Below, in pieces: positions 6,015 through 57,232 of a stretch of 64,000 nucleotides of DNA. Made by a program: the position numbers and the translations under genes. The DNA is from Solirubrobacterales bacterium (GTDB taxonomy: Bacteria > Actinomycetota > Thermoleophilia > Solirubrobacterales > JBBDJG01): positions 16,542 to 80,541 of the forward strand of contig JBBQNR010000002.1 of assembly GCA_038330145.1 (NCBI GenBank), in the 5' to 3' direction. Every line of letters starts with the position of its first letter. Within the stretch, counting starts at the first letter, position 1. Under the pieces are notes generated by a model. The model worked only from the letters and a program-made list of their open reading frames with translations, made no database searches and was not told the origin of the DNA.

Positions 6015-7826
<1,812 letters not shown>

Positions 7827-13757: not shown

Positions 13758-14204
13758 GTGACGATCACGGAGCAGGTCCAATCGGACATGGCGGAGGCGG
13801 CAAAGGCGCGTGACCAGCGTCGCCTGCAGACGCTGCGGCTCGTGCTCGACTCGCTCAGGAAAGCCGCCAAGGAGGAGCGCGACGAGCTCGACGAGCAGGC
13901 CGAGATCGCGGTGCTGAAGCGGGAGCGAAAGCGCCGCGTGGAGGCTGCGGAGGCGTTCCGTGGCGCCGGGCGAGAGGAGTCGGCCGACGCCGAGCAGGCC
14001 GAGGCGGCGTTGATCGACGTCTATCTGCCGGAGCAGATCTCCGACGGCGACCTGGCTGCGATCGTCAGCGACGCCGTCGCGGAGACCGGCGCCCAGTCGC
14101 CGGCCGAGATCGGCAAGGTGATGTCGGCGGTGATGCCGAAGGTAGGAGGGCGGGCCGACGGCAAGCGCGTCAGCGAACTGGTCCGCCAGAAGCTCGGAGC
14201 GTGA
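13758..14204 (+). CDS. GatB/YqeY domain protein
   Basis: The 148-aa ORF has a YqeY-like pattern (RLVLDSLRKAAKEE...GKVMSAVMPKVGGRADGKRVSELV). Confidence 0.75.
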   Translation: MTITEQVQSDMAEAAKARDQRRLQTLRLVLDSLRKAAKEERDELDEQAEIAVLKRERKRRVEAAEAFRGAGREESADAEQAEAALIDVYLPEQISDGDLAAIVSDAVAETGAQSPAEIGKVMSAVMPKVGGRADGKRVSELVRQKLGA

Positions 14205-14226
14205 TGGGGAGCCTGCGGGCATAGCC

Positions 14227-15204
14227 GTGCGCGAGCAGCTGACGCTCGATCCGGCGGTGGCGGCCGAGCTGGCCGGGTCCGAGGACGTGGTGTTGAAGGC
14301 GCTGGAAGGTCACCTCGGCTGCGACGTCTTCCTGCGCGGCAACGTGCTGACGCTGGACGGCGACGAGCGCGAGGTGGGAGTCGGACGTGAGGTGATACGC
14401 GAGCTGTCCGAGCTGATCGCCCGCGGGCACGAGATCGCTCCCGGCACGATCGAGGCGGTCACGTCGGCCCTCGACCAGCACGAGAGTCCGTCCACGATCC
14501 TCGGCGACGTCGTCTGGACGCACCGCGGCAACCGCGTTGCGCCCAAGACCGTGAACCAGAAGCGCTACGTCGACTCGATCCGCAACAACACGATCACCTT
14601 CGGGATCGGGCCCGCGGGCACGGGCAAGACCTACCTCGCCATGGCGATGGCGACGGCGGAGCTGTCGCGCCGCCAGGTCAACCGCATCATCCTGACGCGC
14701 CCGGCCGTCGAGGCCGGCGAGCGCCTCGGCTTTCTTCCCGGAACGATGATGGAGAAGGTCGACCCCTACCTGCGCCCGCTGTTCGACGCGCTCTACGACA
14801 TGATGGAGGCCGAGCGTGTCAACGCGCACATCGAGCGCGGCGTGATCGAGGTGGCGCCGCTGGCGTTCATGCGCGGTCGCACGCTGAACGACGCATTCAT
14901 CATCCTCGACGAGGCGCAGAACACGACACCGGAGCAGATGAAGATGTTCCTGACACGGCTCGGCTTCAACTCGACGATGGTCGTCACGGGCGACATCACT
15001 CAGATCGACCTCGAGTCGAACCAGCGCTCCGGCCTGGTGGTCGTGCGCGACATCCTCGGCGACGTCGGCGACATCGACTTCATCACCTTCGGCGGCGAGG
15101 ACGTCGTGCGGCACAAGCTGGTGCAGCAGATAGTCGAGGCCTATTCGGAGCAGGGGCAGAGCCAGGCGCCCGATCTGCGCTCGGCCCGCTCTCGCAAGAG
15201 TTAG
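14227..15204 (+). CDS. phoH: PhoH-like ATPase (YbeZ)
   Basis: It has the Walker A motif GPAGTGKTYLAMA and PhoH family blocks. It is followed by ybeY. Confidence 0.85.
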   Translation: MREQLTLDPAVAAELAGSEDVVLKALEGHLGCDVFLRGNVLTLDGDEREVGVGREVIRELSELIARGHEIAPGTIEAVTSALDQHESPSTILGDVVWTHRGNRVAPKTVNQKRYVDSIRNNTITFGIGPAGTGKTYLAMAMATAELSRRQVNRIILTRPAVEAGERLGFLPGTMMEKVDPYLRPLFDALYDMMEAERVNAHIERGVIEVAPLAFMRGRTLNDAFIILDEAQNTTPEQMKMFLTRLGFNSTMVVTGDITQIDLESNQRSGLVVVRDILGDVGDIDFITFGGEDVVRHKLVQQIVEAYSEQGQSQAPDLRSARSRKS

Positions 15205-25389: not shown

Positions 25390-25554
25390 ATGATCGTCTA
25401 CCTTGCCGCCGTCATCGGAGCATGCATCTTCGTCGTGCTCTGGGCGACGGGCCTGAACGCGGACGTCGCCGGGCTGATCGCCCTGGCGATCCTGGGAGCC
25501 GGGATCCTGGGACACATGGCCACGTCGGCGGGCACAGACGAGGAACGCACCTAG
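25390..25554 (+). CDS. Small hypothetical membrane protein (54 aa, two predicted TM helices)
   Basis: An AGGAG Shine-Dalgarno lies about 6 nt before ATG 25390. Third codon positions are strongly G/C. The protein is hydrophobic (MIVYLAAVIGACIFVVLWATG...). Confidence 0.5.
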   Translation: MIVYLAAVIGACIFVVLWATGLNADVAGLIALAILGAGILGHMATSAGTDEERT

Positions 25555-25606
25555 TGGGCCTTCTCGGAACGTTCACCAGGTGAAACGGTTTGAGAGGGGC
25601 CTCTAG
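25551..25606 (-). repeat. Family A core-less mini-element (two arms joined as one long hairpin, inverted orientation)
   Basis: It reads CTAGTGGGCCTTCTCGGAACGTTCACC-AGG-TGAAACGGTTTGAGAGGGGCCTCTAG. The first arm matches the reverse complement of the copy 2 3' arm. It starts at the TAG of the small ORF. Confidence 0.7.
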
Positions 25607-36086: not shown

Positions 36087-36251
36087 GTGGCGCTCTTCGA
36101 AACGTTTCACCGCAAACGGCGGCCTCCGGAACCGCCATGCGGCGTCCTCGGTCGCCCACGTACTCACCGAGTACGCGGGCTTCCTGCGTCCTTGCCTGGC
36201 AGCCCCGGAACTGCGCCGTTTCCTGGCGAACGTTCCGGCGAACGCCACTAG
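36084..36251 (+). repeat. Family A structured intergenic element, full copy 1 (rpsA-coaE spacer)
   Basis: It runs from TAAGTGGCG to CGCCACTAG. The outer ~27-35 nt are inverted complements. Internal hairpins lie at 36118-36136 and 36155-36179. Its ~70-nt core differs from copy 3 at only two positions. Confidence 0.85.
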
Positions 36252-36257
36252 CCCTAG

Positions 36258-36857
36258 TTGCTCTTCATTGGCCTGACCGGCGGTATCGGGGCGGGCAAGT
36301 CGGAAGCCCTCGCCGCATCCGAGCGGCTGGGCGCCGCGGTGCTGTCCACGGACGCGGTCGTGCACGAGCTGCTGGGCAGCGACGAGTTGCGCGAGGCGCT
36401 GTCCGAGCACTGGGGCGAGCGGGTGCTGGCAGCAAGCGGCGAGGTCGACCGCGCCGCGGTGGCGGAGATCGTGTTCGAGAGCCCGGAGGAGCTTCGCTGG
36501 CTGGAGTCGGTGGTGTTTCCCCGCGTCGGCGAGCGCGTCGTCGCCTGGCGGGCGGACCTCGAGGCGGCACCCGATCCGCCGCCGGCTGCCGTGGTGGAGG
36601 TGCCCCTGCTGTTCGAGGCCGGTATCGAAGGTATCTTCGACACAACGATTGCGGTGGTGAGCGCGGAGCAGACTCGCGCCCAGCGCGCCGAGGACCGCGG
36701 CCAGCCCGGCCTGGGCGGCCGCGAGGCGCGCCAGCTCACCCAAGAAGAGAAGGCCGAACGGGCGGATCACGTGGTGCGAAACGAGGGAACGCTGGAGGAG
36801 TTGGAGCAGTCGATGCGGGAGGTGCTGGGCTCGCTGACGCGCGGTGATACGCGTTGA
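36258..36857 (+). CDS. coaE: Dephospho-CoA kinase
   Basis: It has the P-loop IGLTGGIGAGKS. It occupies the conserved position after rpsA. The start is TTG. Confidence 0.85.
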   Translation: MLFIGLTGGIGAGKSEALAASERLGAAVLSTDAVVHELLGSDELREALSEHWGERVLAASGEVDRAAVAEIVFESPEELRWLESVVFPRVGERVVAWRADLEAAPDPPPAAVVEVPLLFEAGIEGIFDTTIAVVSAEQTRAQRAEDRGQPGLGGREARQLTQEEKAERADHVVRNEGTLEELEQSMREVLGSLTRGDTR

Positions 36858-37772: not shown

Positions 37773-39803
37773 GTGCCCCCGTTCAAGTTCAACCCCGCCT
37801 ATAAGCCCGTCGCGGACCAGCCCCAGGCGATCAGCCGGCTGGCCGAGGGCCTCGATCGTGGCGATCGCTTCCAGACGCTGCTGGGGGTGACCGGCTCCGG
37901 TAAGACGGCGACGATGGGCTTCACGATCGAGCAGATCCAGAAGCCGACGCTCGTGCTTGCCCACAACAAGACCCTGGCGGCCCAGCTCTGCAGCGAGTTC
38001 CGGGAGTTCTTTCCCGACAACGCCGTGGAGTACTTCGTCTCCTACTACGACTACTACCAGCCTGAGGCCTATGTCCCGCAGCAGGACCTCTACATAGAGA
38101 AGGACTCCTCGATCAACGACGAGATCGACCGCCTGCGCCACTCGGCCACGGCGGCCCTGTTCGCGCGCAGGGACGTCATCATCGTGGCCTCGGTCTCCTG
38201 CATCTACGGCATCGGCTCCCCCGACCTCTACAAGGAGAAAATGCTGTTGCTGAGGGTGGGGGACTGGGTCGATCGTGACGCCACGCTGCGCCAGCTTGTG
38301 TCGATGCAGTACAGCCGCAACGACCAGAACCTGACTCGCGGCACGTTCAGGGTGCGCGGAGAGGTTCTGGAGGTCCATCCCTCCTACGCCGACAGCGCCT
38401 ACCGCGTGCAGCTCTTCGGCGACGAGGTCGAGCGCATCCAGCACTTCGACCCGCTCACCGGCGAGATCCATCACGAGCTCAGCCACGTCGACGTCTGGCC
38501 CGCCACCCACTACGTGACCTCGCCCGACATCATCGAGCGCTCGCTGCACGAGATAAAGCACGAGATGGAGGAGCGCTGCGCCTGGCTCGAGGCCAACGGC
38601 AAGCCGCTCGAGTCGCACCGGCTGCGCCAGCGCACGCAGTACGACATGGAGATGCTGAAGGAGATGGGGTTCACCTCGGGGATCGAGAACTACTCGCGCA
38701 TCCTCGACGGCCGTCCCGCCGGCTCGCCGCCGCACACGCTGATCGATTACTTCCCCGACGACTTCGTCTGCTTCATCGACGAGTCGCATCAGACGGTTCC
38801 GCAGGTGGGCGGCATGTACGAGGGCGACCGCTCCCGCAAGCAGACGCTGATCGACTTCGGCTTCCGGCTGCCGTCGGCGCTCGACAACCGGCCGCTGCGC
38901 TTCGACGAGTTCCTCAAGCGCGTTCCTCAAATCGTGTTCGCCTCGGCGACGCCGGGGCCGTACGAGCGTGAGCACTCGGAGCAGGTCGTTGAGCAGATCG
39001 TGCGCCCGACGGGGATCGTCGACCCGGAGGTCGAGGTGCGCGAGACCAAGCACCAGATCGACGACCTCATGAACGAGATCCGCGTGCGGGCGGAGGCCGA
39101 CGAGCGCGTTCTGGTCACGACGCTGACCAAGAAGATGGCCGAAGACCTGACCGGCTATCTGCTCGAGTACGGCTTCCGGGTGCGCTACCTGCACTCGGAG
39201 ATCGACACGCTGGAGCGGATCCAGATCATTCGCGACCTGCGGCTGGGCGAGTACGACGTTCTGGTGGGTGTGAACCTGCTGCGGGAGGGCCTGGACCTGC
39301 CGGAGGTCTCACTGATCGGAATCCTCGACGCCGACAAGGAGGGCTTCCTACGCGGAGAGACCAGCCTGATCCAGACCATCGGCCGGGCCGCCCGCAACGT
39401 CAACGGCCGGGTGCTGATGTACGCCGACCGCGAGACGGCATCGATGCGGGCCGCGATCGGGGAGACGGATCGTCGCCGAACCATCCAGCTCGCCTACAAC
39501 GAGGAGCATGGCATCACGGCCGCGACGGTGAAGAAGGGCATATCCGACATGTCCGACTTCCTGTCGCTGGAGTCACAGGCCGTGCCGCGCTCGAAGAGGC
39601 GGCGCGCCGACCGCGACGAGGACGTGCGCACTCCCGAGGAGCTCGAGCGCCTGATCGTCGAGATCGAAGAGGAGATGCTCGCCGCCGCGGAGGACCTGCG
39701 CTTCGAGTACGCGGCGAAGCTGCGCGACGAGATCCGTGAGCTGCGCCGCGAGTACGAGCTGGCGGGCGGCAGCCGCACCGCCGGCGACACCAGCTCGACC
39801 TAG
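37773..39803 (+). CDS. uvrB: Excinuclease ABC subunit B
   Basis: The motifs [10 protein letters not shown], a helicase DExx block and a C-terminal UVR domain ([13 protein letters not shown]) are present. The start is GTG. Confidence 0.93.
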
Positions 39804-39968
39804 TGGCCCTTCTCAAAACGTTTCAGCGGGAACGGCGGCCTCCGGGGGCCGCCATGCGGCGTCCTCTGTCGACCCTGTACTGACCGGTACAGGGTCTCCC
39901 TGCGTCCTTGCCTGGCGGCCCCGGGCGCCTCGCCGTTGCCTGGCGAACGCTCCGAGAAGGCCCACCAG
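39801..39968 (+). repeat. Family A structured intergenic element, full copy 2 (uvrB / DUF2182 convergent spacer)
   Basis: It has the same architecture, running from TAGTGGCCC to GGCCCACCAG. Hairpins lie at 39834-39853 and 39871-39896, with compensatory changes relative to copies 1 and 3. Confidence 0.85.
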
Positions 39969-56390: not shown

Positions 56391-57068
56391 ATGACCTTCC
56401 GCGAGGAGATTCTCGCTGCAGAGACGGAGCTCGACGACGCCAAGCCACTGACCGAGCGGCTCTCACTCGGCGTCGCAGCTCGTCTTTCGCGCTACCTCCA
56501 GGTGCTGACGCAGGCGAAAAAGATGGGCAAGGAGACGATCTCCTCCCAGGAGCTGTCGGACTACACGCACATCAACTCGACCCAGATCCGGCGCGATCTC
56601 TCGGGCTTCGGCAAGTTCGGCAAGCGGGGGGTTGGATACAACGTCGACTCGCTCGTCTCGCAGATTCGCAAGATCCTGCGCACGTCCGGGCAGCACAACA
56701 TCGCGCTCTTCGGCGCCGGCAACCTGGGCCAGGCGATCGCCAGCTCCGACATCTTCGCCGACCACGGGTTCCGGGTCGTGGCGATCTTCGACGTGGAGCC
56801 GAAGAAGGTGGGCAAGAAGGTGGGCACCCTCGAGGTGCGCGCCAACGGCTCGCTGCGCGAGGTGGTGGACGAGGAGGACATCGTCGTCGGCGTGCTCGCC
56901 GTCCCAGCCGCCGCGGCGCAGCAGGTGGCCGACGACCTGGTGGAAGCCGGCATCCGGATCATCTTCAACTACTCCGACGCGCTGCTCCAGGTGCCGCCCG
57001 ACGTAACTGTTCACACATCGAGCCCCGCGGTGGACCTGCTGTACGCGCTCTACTTCTACCTGACCTAG
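56391..57068 (+). CDS. rex: Redox-sensing transcriptional repressor Rex
   Basis: It has the wHTH sequence SSQELSDYTHINSTQIRRDLSGFGKFGKRGVGY and the Rossmann motif LFGAGNLG. An alternative TTG start lies at 56355. Confidence 0.88.
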   Translation: MTFREEILAAETELDDAKPLTERLSLGVAARLSRYLQVLTQAKKMGKETISSQELSDYTHINSTQIRRDLSGFGKFGKRGVGYNVDSLVSQIRKILRTSGQHNIALFGAGNLGQAIASSDIFADHGFRVVAIFDVEPKKVGKKVGTLEVRANGSLREVVDEEDIVVGVLAVPAAAAQQVADDLVEAGIRIIFNYSDALLQVPPDVTVHTSSPAVDLLYALYFYLT

Positions 57069-57232
57069 TGGCCTGTCTCGTAACGTCTCGCCGGAACCGG
57101 CGGTCTTCGGAACCGCCATGCAGCGTCCTCGGTCGCCCACGTACTCACCGAGTACGCGGGCTTCCTGCGTCCTTGCCTGGCGGCCCCGAAGCCTCGCCGT
57201 TCCCTGGCGACCGTTCCGAGCCAGACCACTAG
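57066..57232 (+). repeat. Family A structured intergenic element, full copy 3 (rex-GCS2 spacer)
   Basis: It runs from TAGTGGCC to GACCACTAG. The rex stop codon is the first three nt of the element. Confidence 0.85.

Follow-up and report, generated by a model that had tools for sequence, protein, structure and literature searches.

Palindromic insertion elements of Thermoleophilia genomes with arms selected to pair on a single strand

The DNA analysed here is a stretch of 64,000 nucleotides (nt) from a Solirubrobacterales bacterium (assembly GCA_038330145.1, contig JBBQNR010000002.1), hereafter called the window, to the whole of which all position numbers refer. It contains three intergenic copies of a ~165-nt repeat, which share one orientation and which we call family A. 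We find that family A is an insertion element and that pairing of its two arms is selected in one strand alone. This strand, designated F, is the minus strand throughout the window. We propose, with a probability of roughly one half (0.48), that family A is an element resembling miniature inverted-repeat transposable elements (MITEs) and REPINs, in which the F strand would fold as single-stranded DNA (ssDNA) for a putative protein reading its core. The initial annotation of this DNA had placed the three copies correctly, as reading the coordinates confirmed, and had considered them to be selected as an RNA read from the minus strand. Both the selection and the strand are borne out by our analysis. 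The RNA nature is not, since no promoter or terminator was found, the flanking sequences are unrelated and host operons would read no more than about one copy in eight in this sense. Insertion with empty sites, a class-wide span and a placement from stop to start codon within operons come in addition to what had been noticed then.

The whole element is a single irregular rod-like hairpin around an invariant, non-palindromic core. Covariation was measured in a 109-row model-based alignment fitted to the structure, where 90.3% of the cells of the rod are paired, as against 67.3% in shuffles and 37–42% with slid partners. Double substitutions occur in 62 of 68 pairs, and the 1454 double-change cells (459 in shuffles) were not equalled in any of 500 shuffles, in agreement with the earlier proposal that the fold is under selection. 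Helices 1–3 have double substitutions in 50 of 55 pairs, with 88–93% of cells paired, and helix 5, the central hairpin P3, has them in all 11 pairs. The same variety of Watson-Crick pairs was found at nearly every stem position in a strand-neutral alignment. A cloverleaf with local hairpins in each arm was also considered and rejected. It gave 73.2% paired cells against 70.4% in shuffles, with almost no covariation, and the sequences of the local stems are conserved GGCG/CGCC words. The long rod is preferred on the strength of this comparison, which also leaves little room for the separate local hairpin 1 of the initial annotation. Its hairpin 2 corresponds to P3 and was read as described, CCCACGTACTC-ACC-GAGTACGCGGG in copies 1 and 3 and ACCCTGTAC-TGACCG-GTACAGGGT in copy 2, with two double substitutions and one A.C pair (36158/36176).

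The strand on which pairing is selected was determined by a strand-neutral test, in which the 5′ arm is aligned to the reverse complement of the 3′ arm and both kinds of transition are scored alike. The initial annotation had reported an excess of minus-strand wobbles, and the positions that it cited (39815/39953, 39816/39952, 39818/39950, 36158/36176 and 57072/57225) are indeed A.C or C.A on the plus strand when read directly. In the window, minus-strand wobbles outnumber plus-strand wobbles by 7 to 2 in copy 1, 9 to 1 in copy 2 and 4 to 0 in copy 3. The excess holds for the family: in 107 copies from other genomes, stem positions 8–52 contain 470 G.U pairs on F and 60 on the plus strand, with 96 copies favouring F, 6 favouring plus and 5 tied. 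The ratio is about 1:1 immediately outside the element. The model-based alignment gave 556 wobbles on F versus 130 on plus, and 24 representatives with less than 55% mutual arm identity gave 125 versus 30 (21 versus 2 by copy). The asymmetry is distributed over nearly all stem positions. A.C mismatches on F make up 130 of 617 non-pairs, which is the expectation for two of ten mismatch types. Since G.U on F is the only mismatch enriched and A.C is not, pairing is selected in F alone.

Fold energies agree with this result. With RNA parameters, F folds more stably than the plus strand in all of 106 copies (means of –106.0 and –84.2 kcal/mol, a mean gap of 21.8 kcal/mol), and with DNA parameters in 105 of 106 (means of –54.6 and –45.2). 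Copy 2, for instance, folds at –95.6 kcal/mol on the plus and –106 kcal/mol on the minus strand. A comparison of the energies of the two strands had been suggested as a check in the initial annotation, and its outcome favours the minus strand. Mutational bias was examined as a source of the asymmetry and rejected. Deamination leads to C-to-T changes on the exposed sense or leading strand, and predicts the opposite asymmetry. Moreover, the local GC skew is only 0–5% and the asymmetry is independent of gene context, with F to plus wobble ratios of 321:65 in antisense, 32:9 in sense, 49:9 in convergent and 70:19 in divergent copies.

Read on F, the consensus passes from the outer arms through GCCA GGC AA GG A CGC A GG and GA into P3, and from P3 through GA and CY GAGG A CGCCG CA UGGC back to the outer arms. 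The core can thus be written as GCCAGGCAAGGACGCAGG-GA-[variable hairpin]-GA-CYGAGGACGCCGCAUGGC. It is not palindromic, because RAGGACGC flanks P3 on both sides as a direct repeat. The core is near-invariant in the 102 copies of alignment A2 and likewise in alignment A3, the central 21+21 nt being conserved. In P3 itself, the 9–12 bp are free in sequence apart from a single conserved U-A pair (72 of 99 cells), and the loops vary in sequence, triloops being the most frequent. At the ends of the element only (A)GTG...CAC(U) is conserved; these ends are otherwise variable, unlike the centre. The arms are complementary over their full length and no conserved peptide is encoded. Two candidate reading frames, one from an ATG in the plus-strand core and one from a Shine-Dalgarno-AUG arrangement on F, were discarded, neither the ATG (CCTGG is a common alternative) nor the downstream codons being conserved. 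In about three quarters of the copies, the 3′ core block of F (39851-39871, minus strand, in copy 2) reads GAGGA-N6-AUG, that is, a ribosome-binding site with a start codon, followed by a short non-conserved open reading frame (ORF). This arrangement could render insertions in the F sense harmful.

The position of family A relative to genes was called by requiring an open frame, rich in GC at third codon positions, directly beside the element. F is antisense to both flanking genes in 56 cases and sense in 8, a ratio of about 7 to 1 in co-directional contexts; the flanking genes are divergent in 12 cases and convergent in 12. An earlier, looser caller had given 74:21, and the stricter count is used here. 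The suggestion of the initial annotation that the selected strand is antisense to the upstream genes is therefore valid family-wide. A host operon would transcribe about one copy in eight in the folding orientation. Copy 2 lies, as had been reported, 13 nt past the stop codon of a minus-strand PpoB2/DUF2182 gene, in what would be its 3′ untranslated region; such a convergent context is the exception and not the rule for the family.

Within operons, the elements reach from the stop codon of one gene to the start codon of the next. Among 46 full-length antisense copies, 44 have the upstream stop beginning between –11 and +1 of the terminal GTG, with a mode at –2 (TA|G), and TAG is this stop in 28. 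At least 27 of the 46 have an in-frame start codon 1–3 nt past the terminal CAC (cacTGATG, cacTAATG, cacTAGTG, cacTAGATG). The last arm contains a purine block at –11 to –5 (purine fraction 0.67–0.94), with the start codon 5–9 nt downstream, and words resembling Shine-Dalgarno sequences occur in 48 of 81 copies compared with 17% of random 22-mers. The flanking proteins belong to 176 Pfam families without a theme, including ribosomal proteins, ATP synthase subunits, FtsZ, triose-phosphate isomerase and transporters; there is no transposase among the 25 most frequent flanking families listed. A consensus scan limited to sigma-70-type signals found neither a promoter nor an intrinsic terminator in or beside the copies on either strand. 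In three loci (L029, L040 and L070), the ORF of an upstream membrane protein enters a short-form copy and ends at a TAG inside the central hairpin, and the element thus encodes the last ~10 residues of the protein. The orthologous copies at these loci differ by a compensatory change from CGG/CCG to CAG/CTG.

Family A is an insertion element, as orthologous junctions are empty in related genomes. Some metagenome-assembled genomes (MAGs) carry it at the rplW-rplB, rplB-rpsS, rpsQ-rplN, atpH-atpA and further junctions, which in other MAGs are empty, being stop-start overlaps (TGATG, GTGA, ATGA) or short spacers. In 80 relatives of the window coaE from soil metagenomes (L120-L199, 53–70% protein identity), no element was found in 241 kb, and where an upstream stop could be read it lay 3–21 nt from the coaE start. 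In view of these element-free relatives, the family may be patchy even among related lineages. Comparison of loci L112 and L050 (cccTAccgg to ccccTA[GGACG...CGTCC]TAgcgg) is compatible with a TA duplication. An intergenic segment of the window at about 14197-14235 is the empty counterpart of an element site at the MAG locus L107:3236-3406.

The ends of the inserted sequence can be written as (C)TA|GTG...CAC|TA(G), with TA adjoining GTG in 49 and CAC in 44 of 80 copies (~55–60% per side). Because the termini are complementary, a TA duplication and an insertion between T and A give the same sequence. TA occurs 696 times in the window (1559 expected) and CTAG 30 times (184 expected). Given this rarity of TA and CTAG in the genome, stop codons and junctions of the TAATG- or TAGTG-type are natural targets. 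The element termini account for 7 of the 30 CTAG sites of the window.

The extent of the family was determined with the 18-mer CCTGCGTCCTTGCCTGGC, which is identical in all three window copies (39899-39916 in copy 2) and for which 0.23 chance matches were expected. In a scan of one genome per species, at least 119 stretches matched. Among the matches listed, the real ones all come from Thermoleophilia MAGs, belonging to Solirubrobacterales (including Conexibacteraceae and Paraconexibacteraceae), Gaiellales and Thermoleophilaceae; four matches from other phyla contain no other part of the element. The second core block is found at a fixed spacing from the 18-mer in 113 of the 124 matches listed. 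More than 115 family copies were recovered, ascertained through the exact 18-mer and not phylogenetically independent of one another, all homologues being from MAGs. A covariance model (R1) built from 44 long-form copies (alignment A3) retrieved only the three copies across the window, with 137–140 bits on the minus and 41–42 bits on the plus strand, besides a weak match to a 56-nt hairpin. On the fetched loci, it detected further copies without the exact 18-mer, about one extra per 65 kb, and even these copies retain AAGGACGCAGG. The density of the element in genomes across the class is about one copy per 20–65 kb (the window has 3 per 64 kb). Two forms share the same core, a long one of ~165 nt and a short one of ~108 nt, with lengths ranging from 108 to 175 nt.

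Copies within one 8-kb locus mostly have 29–54% arm identity outside the core, whereas the three window copies have 70–78% (85% mean column identity). Copies from different genomes can reach 75–95% identity, and among 60 pairs whose arms were at least 75% identical, 58 had non-homologous flanks. The divergence within loci and the high identity at non-homologous sites between genomes suggest that several old subfamilies coexist, each having moved. A few sites are common to several species, and the orthologous copies found there differ by compensatory changes. An Rfam scan of the whole window at gathering thresholds and a permissive scan of the element gave nothing relevant. Literature searches retrieved no report of the core sequence or of any Thermoleophilia repeat, and plasmid records contained no match to the element. 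Carriage by phages was discarded, the single viral-contig match being a chance match to the 18-mer. From its sequence characters, family A would be an undescribed, class-wide variant of small palindromic mobile repeats of the MITE/REPIN kind. Some copies have unusual arrangements: at locus L116 (reverse-complement coordinates about 6630-6960) two head-to-tail copies have one CTAG in common, at loci L001, L088 and L092 an additional small hairpin is nested in P3, and a copy at L037:2870-3091 contains an insertion of ~50 nt.

In the window, copy 1 lies between rpsA (S1 domains) and coaE, both products being recognised by Pfam (S1 and CoaE), copy 2 between uvrB and the convergent PpoB2/DUF2182 gene, and copy 3 between rex and a gene for a GCS2-family ligase (Table 1). 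The 56-nt hairpin has the termini and outer arms of family A without its core, and its R1 match of 21.3 bits spans model positions 1-172. It begins on the TAG stop of the upstream gene, runs in the orientation opposite to that of the full copies and probably derives from family A by internal deletion. The reverse scheme, with the long form arising as a short form nested in a 56-nt mini hairpin, was set aside: there is no TA at the inner boundary, which makes internal deletion likelier. An inverted-repeat scan for other palindromic families in the window gave only chance GC-rich pairs besides family A.

Table 1. Features of family A in the window. Copy boundaries are measured from the terminal GTG to the terminal CAC.
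Feature	Coordinates	Strand	Details
56-nt core-less hairpin, family A termini and outer arms	25551..25606	+	CTAGTGGGCCTTCTCGGAACGTTCACC-AG-GTGAAACGGTTTGAGAGGGGCCTCTAG
Copy 1, long form (GTG...CAC)	36087..36248	-	R1 139.6 bits on minus, 42.3 on plus
Copy 1 flanks			TAA 36084-36086 is the rpsA stop; TAG 36249-36251; coaE start TTG at 36258
Copy 2, long form	39803..39965	-	R1 136.9 bits on minus, 40.6 on plus
Copy 2 flanks			first base is the G of the uvrB stop TAG (39801-39803); 3′ flank degenerate (CAG)
Copy 2 outer and middle arm (P1+P2), plus-strand 5′ side	39803..39850	-	starts on the stop codon; pyrimidine block CCCTTCTC
Copy 2 core block	39851..39871	-	plus strand GCCATGCGGCGTCCTCTGTCG; F strand CGACAGAGGACGCCGCATGGC; one RAGGACGC repeat and the UGGC half of the closing stem
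Copy 2 P3, central hairpin	39872..39895	-	ACCCTGTAC-TGACCG-GTACAGGGT, hairpin 2 of the initial annotation
Copy 2 second core block	39896..39916	-	plus strand CTCCCTGCGTCCTTGCCTGGC; F strand GCCAGGCAAGGACGCAGGGAG; second RAGGACGC repeat and the GCCA half of the closing stem
Copy 2 outer and middle arm (P1+P2), plus-strand 3′ side	39917..39965	-	purine block GAGAAGG 5-11 nt before the end
Copy 3, long form	57068..57229	-	R1 139.9 bits on minus, 40.9 on plus
Copy 3 flanks			first base is the G of the rex stop TAG (57066-57068); TAG 57230-57232; GCS2-family gene start 57240

In the explanation that we favour, the folded F strand would be the ssDNA substrate of a putative class-wide protein recognising the core during copying, movement or recombination, with a logic as in REPIN/IS200-type transposition or in the bottom strands of integron attC sites. 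We infer the ssDNA state of F from its pairing and from the wobble bias towards one strand. ssDNA is preferred over RNA because the element contains no promoter, no external promoter is shared by the copies, the folding strand is rarely transcribed and the element behaves as mobile DNA. The orientation bias would arise from the persistence of those copies whose folding strand is rarely exposed, and also of those whose mRNA-sense strand is the weaker, pyrimidine-looped hairpin. On the messenger, where this hairpin has to form in any case, the ribosome-binding block of the downstream gene would be hidden within the basal stem, on the side facing the stop codon. A ribosome terminating at the basal stop codon would open it, and translational coupling would be kept, as follows from the geometry. 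More tentatively, family A may represent a new Thermoleophilia system, neither REP/RAYT, integron nor DDE-type MITE, in which a conserved protein reads the asymmetric core on a DNA hairpin folded strand-specifically, the elements being adapted to the stop-start gaps of essential operons through a stop-compatible end and a ribosome-binding block.

Several points weigh against an ssDNA element of this kind. TA on both flanks is a hallmark of MITEs of the IS630/Tc1 type (ERIC, Correia), which move as double-stranded DNA. In IS608, the active strand lies on the lagging-strand template; if the genes concerned are co-oriented with replication, F would be on the leading-strand template, opposite to this rule. 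Copies at the same locus are mostly very divergent and give no sign of a recent burst. No IS200-type Y1 transposase was found by tblastn in ~1.2 Mb of loci, an approximate query making this a weak test, and no transposase, recombinase or autonomous parent was seen in that search or in Pfam scans of the flanking genes. The caller on which the orientation counts depend is home-made. Finally, the invariant centre and free ends of family A invert the architecture of MITEs and REPINs, and raise the possibility of a host function instead; this layout is unlike that of any described MITE or REPIN (PMC3733652).

Among the alternatives, we consider it unlikely, though best placed to compete with an ssDNA role, that F acts as a structured RNA, either antisense or in 3′ untranslated regions, from every copy or from the sense-oriented minority, with the conserved purine-rich core as a binding site for protein or for a second RNA. 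Such an RNA would display the strong covariation and the tolerance of G.U confined to F, but G.T wobbles are tolerated in ssDNA hairpins too, and the stability gap obtained with RNA parameters has its counterpart with DNA parameters. A possible core helix with bulged adenines and tandem G.A beside P3, in which one core pair alternates between G-C and G.U (66 versus 38 sequences), would also suit an RNA, whereas the P3 loops lack any RNA-specific stable motif and the element has no Rfam match. As for expression, copy 2 lies just past a minus-strand operon, and transcription in the F sense is conceivable for the 8 sense-oriented co-directional copies and for the 12 convergent ones; yet in 56 of the 64 co-directional cases the operon runs antisense to F, no signal resembling a promoter or terminator was found in or beside the element by the sigma-70-type scan, and unrelated flanking genes leave no possibility of a shared external promoter. 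An independent small-RNA gene would have its own promoter and terminator, of which that scan saw neither, and a cis-regulatory RNA would combine covariation on the transcribed strand with a coherent gene set, in contrast to the antisense position of F and the many Pfam families beside it. Presence/absence polymorphism and subfamilies at non-orthologous sites point to a mobile sequence and not to a fixed gene.

The opposite strand could be the functional one, the plus-strand mRNA forming a domesticated intercistronic module of stop codon, hairpin and Shine-Dalgarno sequence that couples downstream translation to upstream termination, with a host factor, for instance Rho, ribosomal protein S1 or an RNase, recognising its pyrimidine-rich core loops (GCGUCCUC, CUGCGUCCUU). 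We regard this as improbable. Plus is the mRNA strand in the same 56 of 64 contexts and its hairpin is still very stable (–84 kcal/mol on average), but G.U on the plus strand is no commoner than other mismatches, and A.C, a true mismatch in the mRNA, is 4–8 times commoner. The asymmetry is, besides, the same in the few oppositely oriented copies. The stop on the first bases, the start 1–3 nt past the last base and the purine block at –11 to –5 fit a coupling module; this stop/start geometry follows, however, from insertion at the TA of TAATG-/TAGTG-type junctions in a TA-poor genome. Insertions within essential operons (S10/spc ribosomal protein, atp, rpsA-coaE) and the sites common to different species would likewise agree with domestication, against which the flanking genes have no common function.

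Slightly less probable still is an ordinary MITE of an IS630-like transposon, cut and pasted as double-stranded DNA with TA duplication, whose palindrome would be a relic and whose asymmetry would come from mutational bias or from a few asymmetric masters: the TA next to either end, the one site fitting a TA duplication, the small, non-coding and insertion-polymorphic nature of the element and the precedent of ERIC-type MITEs, with TA termini, RNA folding and no known transposase (PMC3184786), are outweighed by compensatory changes in 62 of 68 pairs, which are not a product of neutral decay, by replication and transcription biases that predict the opposite asymmetry where local GC skew is 0–5%, by an asymmetry that runs across nearly all stem positions and 24 dissimilar lineages and disappears just outside the element, and by ends, the expected sites of a DDE transposase, that vary while the centre is invariant.

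The preferred ssDNA element can be placed among known repeats. In common with MITEs, family A is short and non-coding, has inverted-repeat arms and is present or absent at orthologous sites; the conserved ends and free interior of MITEs are not seen in it. The closest in general form are ERIC (IRU; Enterobacteriaceae) and Correia/NEMIS (Neisseria), which are equally non-coding, 100–170 bp long, palindromic over nearly their full length and bordered by TA at both termini (PMC3184786, PMC3733652). They too lie between genes, are co-transcribed as large RNA hairpins affecting their neighbours and have no known cognate transposase (PMC3184786, PMC3733652); ERIC in particular has TA at both termini and folds in RNA, its transposase not being known (PMC3184786). 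Family A has no sequence similarity to them and occurs in another phylum. It differs further in its invariant centre and variable ends throughout the class, its strong one-strand wobble asymmetry, its 7:1 orientation bias, its precise fit between stop and start codons, the arm supplying a ribosome-binding block, and the mostly great divergence of copies within a genome.

REPINs, which are mobilised by RAYT tyrosine HUH transposases, have been described as hairpins 'in ssDNA or mRNA' with compensatory changes (PMC3116915). Like family A, they are extragenic hairpins of ~100 nt in tens to hundreds of copies with compensatory changes (PMC3116915). They are proposed to act as ssDNA, with a 'clover' of local hairpins as an alternative, and persist for long times within a lineage (PMC3116915). 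In REPINs, the conserved parts are the ends, two inverted REPs tagged with GTAG, and the spacer between them is free (PMC3733652), whereas family A has direct-repeat core blocks in its centre and no GTAG. REPIN hosts are mainly Proteobacteria (PMC3733652) and those of family A Actinomycetota. No RAYT gene was seen in the loci, the tblastn search with an approximate IS200 TnpA query being a weak one. CGTC REPs also consist of a conserved small module within longer complementary arms (PMC3733652), and CGTC is present in both plus-strand core blocks of family A. They have stems of 8–9 bp with A-T in the first two pairs, loops of 4–5 nt, a CCA tail and a tag at the foot of the stem (PMC3733652). 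In family A, by contrast, CGTC lies 6–10 nt from a variable stem of 9–12 bp and the two tags are direct, not inverted. PATE elements derived from IS200/IS605 carry different subterminal hairpins at their two ends, lack inverted termini and insert 3′ of a fixed tetra- or pentanucleotide, whereas family A is symmetric from end to end.

In integron attC sites, structure is conserved above sequence, the site directly follows ORFs and unpaired bases mark the strand. One strand, antisense to the cassette genes, folds and recombines as ssDNA. Unlike attC sites, family A has no R″/R′ core sites (RYYYAAC...GTTRRRY) at its ends, is flanked by housekeeping operon genes and is dispersed rather than arrayed; no integrase was seen beside its copies in the Pfam scans of flanking genes.

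The strand test used here separates selection as a folded single strand from mere palindromic DNA, and in family A it gives a clean answer, which in most copies is the strand that is not the messenger. The element is a lineage marker for the class Thermoleophilia, and its covariance model provides a means to mask or label blocks of 165 nt in Thermoleophilia MAGs. Should the mRNA-sense hairpin matter as well, a stem of about –84 kcal/mol would enclose the downstream ribosome-binding site at dozens of essential operon junctions, among them those of ribosomal protein operons, the ATP synthase operon and rpsA-coaE, and terminating ribosomes would need to unfold it. Should F fold as DNA, its protein partner could be sought with the invariant core as bait, and family A would lead to a new system of single-strand mobility or recombination in a lineage of soil bacteria that is abundant but little studied.

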